From Escherichia phage vB_EcoM_VR7: a DNA stretch of 64,000 nt. The position numbers and the translations under genes were made by a program. The stretch is taken from the sequence record NC_014792.1, one strand, 5' to 3'. Numbering within the stretch: the first letter of the stretch is position 1; each line of letters starts with the position of its first letter. The notes below the pieces were generated by a model. It saw nothing but the letters and a program-made list of their open reading frames with translations. It did not search any database and was not told the DNA's origin. This document shows, piece after piece, positions 4,257 through 30,579 of the stretch.

Positions 4257-4283
4257 ATTATATCATCCTTGATACAAAGCGTT
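4257..4283 (-). promoter_or_regulatory. Middle-type promoter (MotA-box-like CGCTTTG, 12 nt, TATAAT) upstream of gene 55
   Basis: Minus sense CGCTTTGTATCAAGGATGATATAAT; contains AGGA-centred inverted repeat. Confidence 0.45.
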
Positions 4284-4548
4284 AGCGAAGTAAACAGTAA
4301 GCCTGGAAGACCTTCTCCATAATTGCCTTAAATTCGTGGATGTCAATATAAGGGATAACCTCAGCATCACTAATGAATTCCATCAGCCGGTCATGCTCGT
4401 TGTGGTATTGACCTTCATTCAACATGCTGATATGAGATTCCCAGGAGCCATACCCTTCTGCGTGTGGGAAGAATGTTATTTTCATGAATTCATCCACCCA
4501 AAACGTTCCCAGGTCCTGGACGGATATCATTGTATGATTGATGTGCAT
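4282..4548 (-). CDS. Hypothetical protein
   Basis: 88-aa ORF, tiling. Confidence 0.5.
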   Translation of the reverse strand: MHINHTMISVQDLGTFWVDEFMKITFFPHAEGYGSWESHISMLNEGQYHNEHDRLMEFISDAEVIPYIDIHEFKAIMEKVFQAYCLLR

Positions 4549-4814
4549 CAGTGCACCAATTGGGCAGCTTCTAAAACATCATCAAGCTTATCAAACTGGT
4601 CAACATAATCAATCCCACCAACTTCATCTTTGGCATACAACCAATACTGCTTGAATTCATATTCAATAATAAAGTGGTCGCCTTCAATCTGGAGGACACC
4701 AACATCATTAAATTGAACTGCGTAACCCGTAAAGCGGGTATCATTCAGGAGTTCTTCTTTCATAGTAATCATTTCCAGGTTTTTCTCATAATGAGAGAGT
4801 TTAATTTTAATCAT
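4548..4814 (-). CDS. Hypothetical protein
   Basis: 88-aa ORF, tiling. Confidence 0.5.
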   Translation of the reverse strand: MIKIKLSHYEKNLEMITMKEELLNDTRFTGYAVQFNDVGVLQIEGDHFIIEYEFKQYWLYAKDEVGGIDYVDQFDKLDDVLEAAQLVH

Positions 4815-5070
4815 TTAAGTAGTCCAGGAATTCGTCTAATGTCATGCCTTCTCCCCAAGCTTCCCAAGCATCGATTTTAGTGTACTTGGTTTTAGTGCGC
4901 ATAGGATAGATTCTGAATTCATATCCCATTGAAATGAAATAATTTAAAGTCCTTTGTAAATAGTAACCGTGACTAATTTTATGAGCTCGGCGAATTCCAT
5001 TAGCATACTTATGTTTGTAGGATACTATTACCGCAACACCTTCAGGTAATTCAATAGCAGGACACATCAT
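4807..5070 (-). CDS. Hypothetical protein
   Basis: 87-aa ORF, tiling. Confidence 0.5.
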   Translation of the reverse strand: MMCPAIELPEGVAVIVSYKHKYANGIRRAHKISHGYYLQRTLNYFISMGYEFRIYPMRTKTKYTKIDAWEAWGEGMTLDEFLDYLND

Positions 5071-5411
5071 TTTACGCCCTTAACAATTTTCAGGTCAACA
5101 AAACCTTTCTTGCGCTGGGAATTCATACGCTTGATGGCTTTGTCAGAAACTTCTTTGTTTTCACGTGGGAGCGGCAGACCAAACGCTACTACATCGAATT
5201 CGTTCAGGATATACTGAACAAGGCTTTCACGAATACGCGCTTTACCCATTGTCTGACCTTCTGCAATAATCAACTTCTGTACATCGCCTTCCCACTGGTC
5301 CAGAATCTCAGGGGTAACAAAACCAGATTTCATCAGAGTGTTAACTTTAGCAAATGCGAAATTAGCGATGATGTTAGTGATAGATGCAGTCATGATATAT
5401 TCCTCAGTCAA
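5067..5411 (-). CDS. Hypothetical protein
   Basis: 114-aa ORF, tiling. Confidence 0.5.
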   Translation of the reverse strand: MTEEYIMTASITNIIANFAFAKVNTLMKSGFVTPEILDQWEGDVQKLIIAEGQTMGKARIRESLVQYILNEFDVVAFGLPLPRENKEVSDKAIKRMNSQRKKGFVDLKIVKGVK

Positions 5412-5465
5412 TTAAATTAAAATTTTATTATCCTTGGGGTCATTATACCATGACCCCGTTGGTTT

Positions 5466-5663
5466 TTACTGCGCTTTAGCGGCTTTCCATCCTTCATACA
5501 TCATTGCGACGGATATTAATATTGCTCCTGAACAGCTTGAATATTTGTGATTCCAAAACCAGTTCAGAAAAACTTCGTCATCAATACCTTGGGCCATCAT
5601 ATTTTCAAAGAACTGACGACGAGCTTCGGCAATTCGCTGCGATAATTTAGATTCAGGATTCAT
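5466..5663 (-). CDS. Hypothetical protein
   Basis: Track ORF 5466..5711 trimmed to internal Met (MNPESKL) to remove overlap with upstream gene. Confidence 0.35.
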   Translation of the reverse strand: MNPESKLSQRIAEARRQFFENMMAQGIDDEVFLNWFWNHKYSSCSGAILISVAMMYEGWKAAKAQ

Positions 5664-5664
5664 T

Positions 5665-5889
5665 TTAAATTTTCCAATTGCCATTTTCATCAATGAATTT
5701 AATCCAGTCATTTACTGACCACTTAGTTGTATCACCCTTTGGAGTAACATTTAAAGTGTATAACCCCTGCTTAAAAAACATTCGTTTGATATTCATATTT
5801 TCCTCAGCTATAACGGTAACATTCATTTGATTTACGCTTTGCAACACGATGAGAAGTATTATAATCAAAATCATCCTCAACGTACACAT
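5665..5889 (-). CDS. Hypothetical protein (start probably internal, e.g. 5796)
   Basis: 74-aa track ORF; N-terminal part overlaps upstream gene by 86 nt. Confidence 0.3.
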   Translation of the reverse strand: MCTLRMILIIILLIVLQSVNQMNVTVIAEENMNIKRMFFKQGLYTLNVTPKGDTTKWSVNDWIKFIDENGNWKI

Positions 5890-6097
5890 CTTTTTTCAAC
5901 TGACGAACTTCTTTACGCAGTTGACGATTCATCTCATTCTTAACTTCTGAATCAACACCACGCATACGCTTCCATTTGTCTGAACGGAAGATATTTTCTT
6001 CAACTTGTTCCTGACTTACACCATCAGGCGCCTGACGACGCCCTGAATAATAAAAATCTTTTACAGACAATTCTTTGCGACGAATAGTTTTACCCAT
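5804..6097 (-). CDS. Hypothetical basic protein
   Basis: 97-aa ORF, Lys/Arg-rich. Confidence 0.45.
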   Translation of the reverse strand: MGKTIRRKELSVKDFYYSGRRQAPDGVSQEQVEENIFRSDKWKRMRGVDSEVKNEMNRQLRKEVRQLKKDVYVEDDFDYNTSHRVAKRKSNECYRYS

Positions 6098-28623: not shown

Positions 28624-28640
28624 AATATTTTCCTCATTGA

Positions 28641-28680
28641 TTGTGGGACCATTATGTCATAGCCCCATTTGGTTGTACAC
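28641..28680 (-). promoter_or_regulatory. Early promoter (GTGTACAAC ... CATAAT)
   Basis: Minus sense GTGTACAACCAAATGGGGCTATGACATAATGG then GAGGAAAA RBS. Confidence 0.45.
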
Positions 28681-28682
28681 AC

Positions 28683-29333
28683 TTATTTTTGTCTATTATA
28701 ATATTTCAATTCAGCGGCGCGACGTCTTTCCATTGCTTCGTCGCGAGAATCACCATAGTAAAGTTGGATTTCTTTATGATTAACAGTAATATATGATATC
28801 CATTTACCTCTGTCTTTTCTAAACTTGACACCTGTAATTGGACCAGGTGAATCTTTTCGGGTATCCTGGTCAAATGACTGTATTGATGATGAAGCCCATT
28901 CGCAAGTTTCTTTACTGTATAGCTTACATGAATTTATCCGATTAATGCTTGTACCTGCTGGACGAATACCCATATCTTCAACAAAATTCAAATAACCAGT
29001 TTTTCCCTTTGGTAGCCACCTATCACATATTTGTACACCAGCGCCACCATACTGCTTCCAACGATGATGGTTAGGATTTGTACACCTTTCAATCATGGCA
29101 GCATACGATGAATATGTAGGTTTGTCAGAAATAAATGAATAATGATATTTCTGACAGCCGCATGATTTGGTTTTACCTGATTTTATACGAGCGGCGGCTG
29201 TGACAAACTCTTTACCACAATGACAAATACAATTCCATTTAGTAGAAACTCCAGCGGTTTTATATGCTACCGAAACAAATTTGATTCCATTAATAATTTT
29301 ACCAGTCAAATCTTCTAATGGTCTTCCCATCAT
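28683..29333 (-). CDS. Homing-endonuclease-like protein with C-terminal AP2 DNA-binding domain
   Basis: 216 aa; C-terminal GVKFRKDRGKWISYITVNHKEIQLYYGDSRDEAMERRRAAELKYY resembles AP2 domain; N-terminal Cys/His-rich nuclease-like region. Confidence 0.5.
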   Translation of the reverse strand: MMGRPLEDLTGKIINGIKFVSVAYKTAGVSTKWNCICHCGKEFVTAAARIKSGKTKSCGCQKYHYSFISDKPTYSSYAAMIERCTNPNHHRWKQYGGAGVQICDRWLPKGKTGYLNFVEDMGIRPAGTSINRINSCKLYSKETCEWASSSIQSFDQDTRKDSPGPITGVKFRKDRGKWISYITVNHKEIQLYYGDSRDEAMERRRAAELKYYNRQK

Positions 29334-30295
29334 TCATCCTTTTTGAATGGTTTAATTAAATGCTGGTTAGCCTTAAAACGTTTAATATAATCGTCATGAC
29401 CTAAAGCATTATACATACTTATAATTTTACCATAATTTTCATATGCGAAGGTGCGGAACCATCCAGAAGTAATGGAGGTACAGACTTTTTCTAGTGCAAT
29501 ATGGAAGCTCACGGATGGAGATATACTAAACTCGTTAGGAACCTGCGAACGCTCCAGAGCGAGTACACATGCTTCTTCATAAACCCCTGCCAGTTTAATA
29601 ACATCAGGGAGTGCTTCAAATTTTTCACGTGAGGTCATGACTTCTGAATCATCCTTCATATAGAACTTATATGCAGGCTTATCAGCAAGCGCCACGGCCT
29701 CGTGGATGGAGTCATGGTCAAGGGTATAGATTGTATCATTAAAGAAAGTTTTCTTGCCCACGTCTAGTTTAGGGTGACTATATGACAGTGTTTCTGTCTG
29801 ACGTTGTAACATGATTTTCTGCAGTTCATCATTAAGAACAACACCCTTATTACGAAGGTAATTAATATGGCTCATGGTCTTCAGGAAGAATGGATTGTTC
29901 TTCAGATAACGATGAGATAATTTAATTGCCAGACAAATATCAGGAGTCGCCCAGTAAAAACCAGATAGACGGTCCTTTTTAATATGATTTTCAGCATATT
30001 TCAGGAGACGATAACTTGAGGTGAAATCTTCGTCTTGAAGCTCGCCAGTAATTTCTCGTACGTTGGTCAGGGCACGGACAATATAAGCTTCAAAATAGGT
30101 TTCTTTGCCATTGTACATACATTTAAAAGCTTGGACATCAGGGTTATCCACAGGAACATGAGCACCGAACATACGTGCTTTAAAGTGGTTCCATGAGCCT
30201 TGGTCGGCAATGAAATCCCAATCAGAGTTTTCAATTTTCTGACTTTCAATCAGACCAGCGTTATGTAATGCACGAGAACCAATAACTAACATCAT
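29330..30295 (-). CDS. Hypothetical protein
   Basis: 321-aa ORF; N-terminal LVIGSRALHNAG...SDWDF loosely nucleotidyltransferase-like. Confidence 0.45.
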   Translation of the reverse strand: MMLVIGSRALHNAGLIESQKIENSDWDFIADQGSWNHFKARMFGAHVPVDNPDVQAFKCMYNGKETYFEAYIVRALTNVREITGELQDEDFTSSYRLLKYAENHIKKDRLSGFYWATPDICLAIKLSHRYLKNNPFFLKTMSHINYLRNKGVVLNDELQKIMLQRQTETLSYSHPKLDVGKKTFFNDTIYTLDHDSIHEAVALADKPAYKFYMKDDSEVMTSREKFEALPDVIKLAGVYEEACVLALERSQVPNEFSISPSVSFHIALEKVCTSITSGWFRTFAYENYGKIISMYNALGHDDYIKRFKANQHLIKPFKKDE

Positions 30296-30308
30296 AATAT
30301 TTTCCTCA

Positions 30309-30476
30309 TTAGTAAAGACGAGTTACTTCATATTTTCCAAGTGCCGATTTTTTCGCTTCAATTCGTGAGGCAGCAAGATTGGCGGCCTCTAGTGAAGAAA
30401 ATTGAACCACTTGAGAAGTATTCTGTCTTACTCCACCTTGCGGGTGAGTGACAAAAACAATAAGAACATTATACAT
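30309..30476 (-). CDS. Hypothetical small protein (55 aa)
   Basis: Manual translation MYNVLIVFVTHPQGG...; GAGGA RBS; downstream of promoter cassette. Confidence 0.3.
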   Translation of the reverse strand: MYNVLIVFVTHPQGGVRQNTSQVVQFSSLEAANLAASRIEAKKSALGKYEVTRLY

Positions 30477-30504
30477 AATATTTTCCTCATTAGTTGACGA
30501 GATA

Positions 30505-30534
30505 ATGATACTACGTTTCTTTAGGCTTGTACAC
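30505..30534 (-). promoter_or_regulatory. Early promoter-leader cassette
   Basis: Minus sense GTGTACAAGCCTAAAGAAACGTAGTATCATTATCTCGTCAACTAATGAGG. Confidence 0.45.
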
Positions 30535-30579
30535 TAAATTTCTGCACATAAGTCCTCCTATCACATCCTTGTGATAATT

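Follow-up and report, generated by a model that had tools for sequence, protein, structure and literature searches.

A 64,000-nucleotide stretch of the Escherichia phage vB_EcoM_VR7 genome (sequence record NC_014792.1; hereafter the window, meaning this stretch at its full length) contains four short inverted repeats centred on AGGA, three of which lie inside promoters. Do these repeats act as DNA palindromes for a dimeric factor, or do they act in RNA, and what would then read them? We confirm that the repeats are real and conserved; the evidence points to hairpins in sense-strand RNA whose loop is read by sequence. The most likely reader is the host post-transcriptional regulator CsrA, an assignment that we make tentatively.

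The phage is T4-like and belongs to the genus Gaprivervirus. Over 2 kb the window is about 94% identical to VR20, and in the region of the fourth repeat it is 96.9% identical to VR26; its gp55 is identical to gp55 of two IMG/VR genomes. The prereplicative genes of the window are on the minus strand, so the inverted repeats must be read as their reverse complement. For comparison, we assembled the T4 genome (AF158101) and used TH44 (MT446415), a complete Gaprivervirus genome.

Four hairpins with a common core

The initial annotation had described four hairpin-capable repeats around an invariant AGGA. All four are present (Table 1), with its start positions deviating by 1-4 nt from the coordinates of the perfect arms. 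The sites, when read on the minus (sense) strand, have in common not AGGA alone but the 8-mer CAAGGATG, which occurs five times in the window, always on that strand. The centre is less strict than had been described: what is invariant across relatives is CA-N-GGA-N-G, and TH44 has CGGA and UGGA loops.

By RNA folding, each of the four sites forms a stem with an AGGA loop. The computed energies are -5.2 kcal/mol for site 1, folded alone, and -6.8, -7.2 and -6.6 kcal/mol for sites 2, 3 and 4 (z-score -5.6 at site 4), the last three of which are present in the minimum free energy (MFE) structure of the RNA in context. A covariance model of the hairpin returned exactly these four sites from the window, at 26.6, 27.3, 29.1 and 26.7 bits for sites 1 to 4, with the next match at 15.6 bits. 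When the model was run on 1.47 Mb of T4-like DNA, 57 of 57 matches were known sites, all on the sense strand. Rfam scans of the window called two tRNAs only, with chance-level matches at sites 3 and 4.

Three of the sites are built into promoters. Site 1 lies in the spacer of the middle-type promoter of gene 55 (ATG at 4231-4233), where relatives have AATGCTTTG as the MotA-like box; the P55 promoter has been mapped in T4, and the MotA box consensus and its 12±1 bp spacing have been described (PMC2988021). Site 2 is found within the spacer of an early-type promoter upstream of an nrdC.4 homologue. This promoter, which a promoter scan reads as TTTACT-17-TATAAT with 10 of 12 matches, is orthologous to the early-type nrdC.4 promoter of T4 (50973). 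Site 3, upstream of an nrdC.6 homologue, overlaps the -10 TATAAT (13774-13779) with its 3' arm, and a MotA-like box, AACGCTTTA, is at 13792-13800. Site 4 begins 2 nt past the stop codon of a 74-amino-acid open reading frame (ORF; 30580-30804), outside any promoter, and a sigma-70-like promoter is located farther downstream. Two earlier claims about location thus stand in part. The repeats were said to lie inside promoter spacers, which is true of sites 1-3 but not of site 4, and is not a defining property; three were said to fall between a MotA-like box and the -10, which is true of sites 1 and 3 but not of site 2, with its early-type -35 GTTTAC.

The upstream gene's stop codon precedes the start of each hairpin by 1-10 nt, a Shine-Dalgarno (SD) sequence follows its end after 9-40 nt, and these helices leave the downstream SD and AUG unpaired.

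Table 1. Coordinates of the AGGA hairpins and associated elements (window positions unless stated otherwise).
Feature	Position	Strand	Details
Site 1, perfect arms	4261-4274	+	tatca-TCCT-tgata
Site 2, perfect arms	11768-11779	+	tcca-TCCT-tgga
Site 3, perfect arms	13775-13794	+	ttatacca-TCCT-tggtataa
Site 4, perfect arms	30559-30576	+	tatcaca-TCCT-tgtgata
Site 1 hairpin	4258..4277	-	UUGUAUCA-AGGA-UGAUAUAA; one G·U pair; core CAAGGATG 4264-4271
MotA-box-like element of gene 55 promoter	4275..4283	-	AACGCTTTG; 12 nt upstream of -10 TATAAT (4257-4262)
Site 2 hairpin	11766..11781	-	CUUCCA-AGGA-UGGAGG; one U·G pair; core 11770-11777
Early-type sigma-70 promoter at site 2	11757..11786	-	GTTTAC, 18-nt spacer, TATAAT
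Site 3 hairpin	13775..13794	-	UUAUACCA-AGGA-UGGUAUAA; 8 bp; core 13781-13788
Site 4 hairpin	30558..30577	-	UUAUCACA-AGGA-UGUGAUAG; core 30564-30571
SD-like AGGAGGA and 12-codon remnant ORF	30511..30559	-	SD 30553-30559, directly after hairpin 4; ATG 30547-30549
TH44 hairpins outside the window	142611, 149457, 160202, 81992 (TH44)		promoter- or leader-associated CANGGANG

Enrichment in intergenic sense-strand sequence

We counted perfect arms around sense-strand AGGA and compared the counts with those in dinucleotide shuffles, 500 for the window and 200 for T4. The window has five repeats with arms of at least 4, where 1.05 are expected (a count reached in 6 of 500 shuffles), and three with arms of at least 5, where 0.25 are expected (1 of 500); AGGA repeats in the opposite orientation were at chance level in the same test. 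T4 gave eight against 3.35 expected (4 of 200 shuffles) and four against 0.83 (1 of 200). The repeats are therefore more frequent than chance in both the window and T4, the comparison that the initial annotation had proposed for them. Taken alone, the enrichment in the window is moderate, given the post-hoc choice of centre; its replication in T4 and TH44 is convincing.

Arm length goes with location. Four of the five CAAGGATG copies in the window fall in the 8% of the sequence that is non-coding, and all four have arms of at least 4; the sole coding copy is armless. T4 has four hairpins, at 2438, 49896, 50953 and 53339, each with the CAAGGATG core, on the sense strand and intergenic; its eight further copies of CAAGGA[TC]G, most of them within coding sequence, have arms of 0-1. 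Across the TH44 genome, arms of at least 3 flank seven of nine intergenic sense-strand copies of the broader motif CANGGANG, compared with 5 of 45 coding copies. As a negative control, we looked at unrelated viral contigs containing CAAGGATGNTATAAT, in which, among the matches listed, arms occurred at the chance rate and most matches were coding.

TH44 carries seven hairpin sites and one short-armed copy. Among those beyond the window are a hairpin with core CACGGAUG in the spacer of an early-type promoter downstream of the cd.3 homologue and another with core CAAGGAAG in an early-type spacer upstream of the alt.-3 homologue. A third, at the nrdA-nrdB junction, has core CAUGGAUG; it belongs to the nrdB leader rather than to a promoter spacer and abuts a GGA-containing SD. 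The copy upstream of the gp45.2 homologue, also outside the window, has core CAAGGAUG and just 2 bp of extra arms.

Covarying arms around a fixed core

We aligned 15 distinct promoter-context instances and compared them with 500 shuffles and with slid controls. The covariation score was 0.574, as against 0.173 in shuffles (reached in 0 of 500) and at most 0.255 in the slid controls, and the four pair positions next to the core each showed 3-5 pair types. Of all cells, 85% were paired, compared with 63% in shuffles, a percentage inflated because the set was gathered partly by seeking arms, although stem-breaking instances were kept in.

The orthologous nrdC.4 promoters illustrate the pattern. 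Around a kept core, their arms read UUCC/GGAG, AUCC/GGAU, AACC/GGUU and CCAC/GUGG in different genera, and the core itself is CAAGGACG in one lineage; the orthologues of site 2 in RB69-like phages and T4 likewise differ by compensatory arm changes. The hairpin of site 3 recurs unchanged in PnrdC.7, a middle promoter of T4 (listed start 53325), and in RB69-like phages this hairpin has 100% local identity, as against 60-80% in the flanking genes. Across genera, conservation is highest at the hairpins. Sites 2 and 3 occupy syntenic, conserved positions in three genera, and eight Gaprivervirus genomes show no variation at sites 2, 3 or 4.

Site 4 forms a conserved island: the hairpin and AGGAGGA are constant, while the flanks differ among the relatives TH41, TH55, TH57 and TH54, and in BLAST the homology with Dhakavirus and Bp7 begins just where the hairpin does (its edge, query base 376). 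In TH57 (L184) and TH41 (L185) the hairpin and SD precede an intact 109-amino-acid gene (phrog_9796), of which the window keeps 12 codons. TH54 (L189) has a different deletion, ending right after AGGAGGA.

Probably RNA hairpins, not DNA palindromes

Several features bear on whether the element works as RNA or as DNA. The hairpins include G·U pairs that would be C·A mismatches on the opposite strand. Their distance from the -10 varies (1, 3, 7 or 8 nt), and site 4 has no promoter. The conserved symmetric half-sites, in either orientation, that mark a DNA operator were not found: the arms are variable, the centre is asymmetric and the orientation is single. Variable complementary arms, an invariant asymmetric centre, one orientation, wobble on one strand and a variable distance to the -10 together indicate an RNA hairpin, not a DNA palindrome bound by a dimer. 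The initial annotation had offered both explanations for arms that differ in sequence yet stay complementary. Such arms are borne out by the covariation score and selection on structure by the variety of pair types at the four positions; a dimeric factor on DNA is made unlikely by the features just listed and by the 57 of 57 sense-strand matches.

We also considered, and rejected, several known elements. With weak (-5 to -7 kcal/mol), AU-rich stems and no U-tract, the hairpins are not intrinsic terminators; no terminator-like call was made. A mini-ORF, formed by an AUG in the 3' arm and an in-frame stop, is a by-product of ATGnTATAAT, and the SD-like AAGGA abuts that AUG. Judged by eye, TCACA-N4-TGTGA has the wrong order and spacing for a CRP-like site, and the TTR element of an IHF-like site is missing. 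A RegB site needs GGAGRAYARAA.

The core fits the CsrA motif

The consensus for CsrA from in vitro selection (SELEX), which we took from secondary sources, is RUACARGGAUGU, in which ACA and GGA are the conserved parts and a hairpin loop holds the GGA; for Rsm the motif is CANGGANG, or in fuller form (A/U)CANGGANG(U/A). All hairpin sites of the window and of T4 read CAAGGAUG, an exact fit to the CsrA core motif. The core variants CAAGGAUG, CACGGAUG, CAUGGAUG, CAAGGAAG and CAAGGACG all fit CANGGANG and differ only at its two N positions, and site 4, T4 nrdC.4 and T4 rIIA.1 read ACAAGGAUGU, a match at 10 of 10 core positions. The units of E. coli CsrB are built in the same way, as arm-CAGGAUG-arm' with free complementary arms, and one of them contains CAAGGAUG. 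The glgC leader contains GCACACGGAUUGUGUG; its hairpin is reportedly a validated CsrA site. Sites 2, 3 and 4 have a second GGA, located 10-40 nt downstream in the SD; a second GGA is also present at T4 nrdC.4 and rIIA.1. The hairpins follow the orientation of the flanking genes, and operon structure and T4 PnrdC.7 point to transcription through them. CsrB is stabilised during T4 infection. On the strength of these motif matches, we consider binding of host CsrA to these candidate sites a serious possibility, somewhat short of an even chance.

A number of observations weigh against this reading. Site 1, the weakest of the four, has a polymorphic core C (C/T/A) among Gaprivervirus isolates in otherwise fixed surroundings, and its RNA in context prefers a long-range fold in which the SD and AUG of gene 55 are paired to sequence upstream (-20.3 kcal/mol, z-score -3.98). 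The close relative L004 has an A-to-C change that breaks a stem pair at site 3. Site 1 and T4 nrdC.7 have no second GGA within reach, and because GGA is common in T4 SDs, its presence elsewhere does not discriminate. With only 4-8 sites per genome, the hairpins are not a multi-site sponge like CsrB. At several sites the core TG doubles as an extended -10 TGn, and many T4 early promoters have a GATGG-like spacer end, so conservation could be partly promoter-driven. The downstream genes have unrelated functions: their PHROGs annotation is 'unknown function' only, and there is therefore no functional theme among them. Finally, the covariance models do not detect each other's targets. A model trained on CsrB and CsrC (R1, 10 units) scored sites 1 and 3 at 9.3-9.5 bits (E-value about 5), ranked them 13th and 15th and did not list sites 2 and 4, and the phage hairpin model (R2) had no match to CsrB or CsrC. 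Both models are tiny, and the phage and CsrB cores differ by one loop nucleotide, which R1 penalises. Given this failed cross-detection by tiny models, CsrA is the most likely reader and not an established one.

Alternatives to CsrA

The same RNA hairpin could have a different reader: an uncharacterised RNA-binding protein made early by the phage, the anti-SD of 16S rRNA or the 30S subunit, or a ribonuclease for which it would be a mark of processing or stability. The structural evidence (covariation, strand and location) applies equally to all of these. The loop AAGGA is SD-like and can pair with the anti-SD, the functions of many early T4 proteins are not known, and the CsrB-trained model does not recognise the sites. 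However, RegB needs GGAG (within GGAGRAYARAA) and the loop of the gp43 operator is UAAC, neither of which matches, and a 4-nt loop is poor for anti-SD pairing. RegA sites are AU-rich. Moreover, variation is limited to the two N positions of CANGGANG, as the CsrA/Rsm motif predicts. We regard a reader other than CsrA as rather unlikely.

The hairpins might instead belong to cassettes of the PeSL/PmSL type, propagated by shared descent and recombination, with a stem-loop that serves recombination or punctuation and a loop that is unread. Such cassettes are described in T4-like phages, T4 has two near-identical hairpin-bearing early promoters (2458 and 50973), and site 4 stands out as an island of conservation at mosaic junctions. 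That location was seen at site 4; sites 2 and 3 are in syntenic positions. PeSL stem-loops, however, are terminators just upstream of the promoter, an arrangement found at none of sites 1-4, where the hairpins lie in the spacer or next to the SD and are weak. Nor can descent alone hold 8 nt invariant beside four pairs saturated with compensatory changes. Cassettes with an unread loop are an improbable explanation.

A DNA-level element in the spacer, either a dimer operator or a contact of sigma-70, AsiA or MotA with RNA polymerase that tunes promoter strength, would explain why three of the four window sites and most T4 and TH44 sites overlap promoter spacers, and why, at sites 1 and 3 and the gp45.2-homologue site, the core TG occupies the position of an extended -10. 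It does not fit the freely varying arms around a fixed asymmetric centre, the constant sense orientation, the unfixed distance to the -10, or G·T pairs tolerated on one strand only. The motif is also missing from most T4 early promoters, and site 4 and the TH44 nrdB-leader site are outside spacers. We consider a DNA-level role very unlikely.

That short palindromes coincide by chance in AT-rich intergenic DNA, which the moderate window-only enrichment after a post-hoc choice of centre and the neutral-like behaviour of site 1 might suggest, is scarcely credible given the replication in T4 and TH44, the bimodal arm lengths tied to intergenic sense-strand location, covariation above both shuffled and slid controls, and the chance rate of arms in the unrelated CAAGGATGNTATAAT contigs (among the matches listed).

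A possible switch on read-through transcripts

We read the repeats as short sense-strand hairpins of prereplicative (early and middle) transcripts, with a 4-8 bp stem of free sequence, in which the core CA-N-GGA-N-G provides the C-G and A-U closing pairs and the AGGA loop. If CsrA is the reader, it would be predicted to bind through the GGA in that loop. At seven of the eight TH44 sites the 5' arm is upstream of the expected start site of the overlapping promoter, and the complete hairpin should therefore be found only on read-through, polycistronic RNA. Locally initiated RNA would lack the hairpin. The likely outcome would be CsrA-dependent control of the downstream cistron on the read-through RNA, affecting either translation or stability. 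At sites 2, 3 and 4, CsrA might bridge to the second GGA in the SD, a dual-site binding as in CsrA repression; early RNA, being very abundant, might also titrate CsrA. That hairpins and promoters overlap may simply reflect intergenic regions of only 55-65 nt. It is possible, though doubtful, that T4-type coliphages place high-affinity CsrA hairpins in or next to early and middle promoters as a post-transcriptional switch that depends on promoter choice, co-opting or locally titrating CsrA in the first minutes of infection.

No link between CsrA sites and T4 turned up in the papers that we searched. A 2010 review of post-transcriptional control in T4 mentions neither CsrA nor a conserved cis-acting RNA motif of this kind, and single CsrA-type sites nested in phage promoters are not described in the T4 transcription review or in the literature we found. 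T4 is the best-studied lytic phage, and the motif sits in one of its experimentally identified promoters, PnrdC.7. It bears on how a gene's read-through transcripts come to be handled differently from its promoter-proximal ones, on whether lytic phages plug into the host Csr network, and on the reason for CsrB stabilisation in T4 infection. If CsrA is not the ligand, the element is still an RNA recognition site common to at least three genera of Tevenvirinae.

Nearby promoters, leaders and repeats

The read-through leader of gene 55, which encodes the late sigma factor, contains a second kind of structure (window 4225-4300, minus strand), in which the segment 5' of the -10 pairs with the gene 55 SD and AUG. 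Across 15 diverse T4-like phages (loci L003-L045, about 9920-10010), the MFE fold pairs the gene 55 SD region, and the arms covary, as in CCUCUU/AAGAGG, CCUCUCGCUUC/GAAGCGAAGAGG and CUUCCGCC/GACGGAAG. The logic is as in T4 e, soc, 49 and I-TevI; gene 55 is absent from the review's list.

Early-type promoters on the minus strand near 36184, 36517, 35895, 33123, 26169, 14388 and 5394-5465 have a different inverted repeat, which brackets the -10. One example reads GATGGGATA..TATAAT..TATCCCATC, with the 5' arm in the spacer and the 3' arm in the leader next to the SD. These -10-bracketing repeats look like PeSL-like cassettes. Window positions 36130-36183 and 36463-36516 are neighbouring, near-identical 54-nt promoter cassettes (…GTACgtGATGGGATAACTGCAGTATAATTATCCCATCAACTACTGGAGACAACATG) that may act as recombination substrates. 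The T4 early-type promoters at 2458 (rIIA.1) and 50973 (nrdC.4) are near-identical over 30 nt, GTTTACTTT(A/G)CCACAAGGATGTGGTATAAT, which suggests duplication or transfer of a promoter cassette.

Beside the tRNA genes, at 33643-33813 on the minus strand of the window, is a 171-nt non-coding stretch with a tRNA-like T-arm, GGTTCGAATCC, and a terminator-like end, for which Rfam made no call; this stretch may correspond to the stable RNAs C and D of T4. Lastly, ATAACACGGAAGTTAT, a CANGGANG palindrome, is conserved antisense to early genes in several distant T4-like phages (minus strand of loci L012, L013, L027, L028, L029, L034, L043 and L053). In TH44 it lies at 85252, inside coding sequence according to the ORF map.

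Comparison with known systems

The AGGA hairpins resemble the PeSL and PmSL elements (Arbiol 2010; Comeau 2014) as short, conserved modules of promoter and stem-loop in intergenic, hyperplastic regions. They differ in that the PeSL stem-loop is upstream of the -35 and is a terminator, of the AGNA-loop-TCNT type in T4 and PST, whereas the AGGA stem-loop, a weak one with an invariant loop and no U-tract, is found within the spacer or beside the SD.

With the masking hairpins of T4 (e, soc, 49 and I-TevI) they share a 5' strand upstream of the start of an internal promoter, such that read-through and local RNA differ. The masking helices, however, pair the SD or AUG and are associated with late promoters, whereas the AGGA hairpins exclude the SD, overlap early or middle promoters and keep their loop sequence invariant.

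Of known elements, the GGA hairpins bound by CsrA and RsmA-RsmE come closest. They differ from the phage sites in arrangement: the latter are single, number 4-8 per genome, are intergenic and are mostly nested in promoter spacers. Compared with CsrB, the phage core is usually 8 nt (CAAGGAUG) rather than 7 (CAGGAUG), and the models do not cross-detect. In build the phage and CsrA/Rsm hairpins are alike, each having a GGA in the loop of a short hairpin, a free, covarying stem, a place on sense-strand RNA and the invariant C-A-x-G-G-A-x-G, with some sites adjoining a GGA-containing SD.

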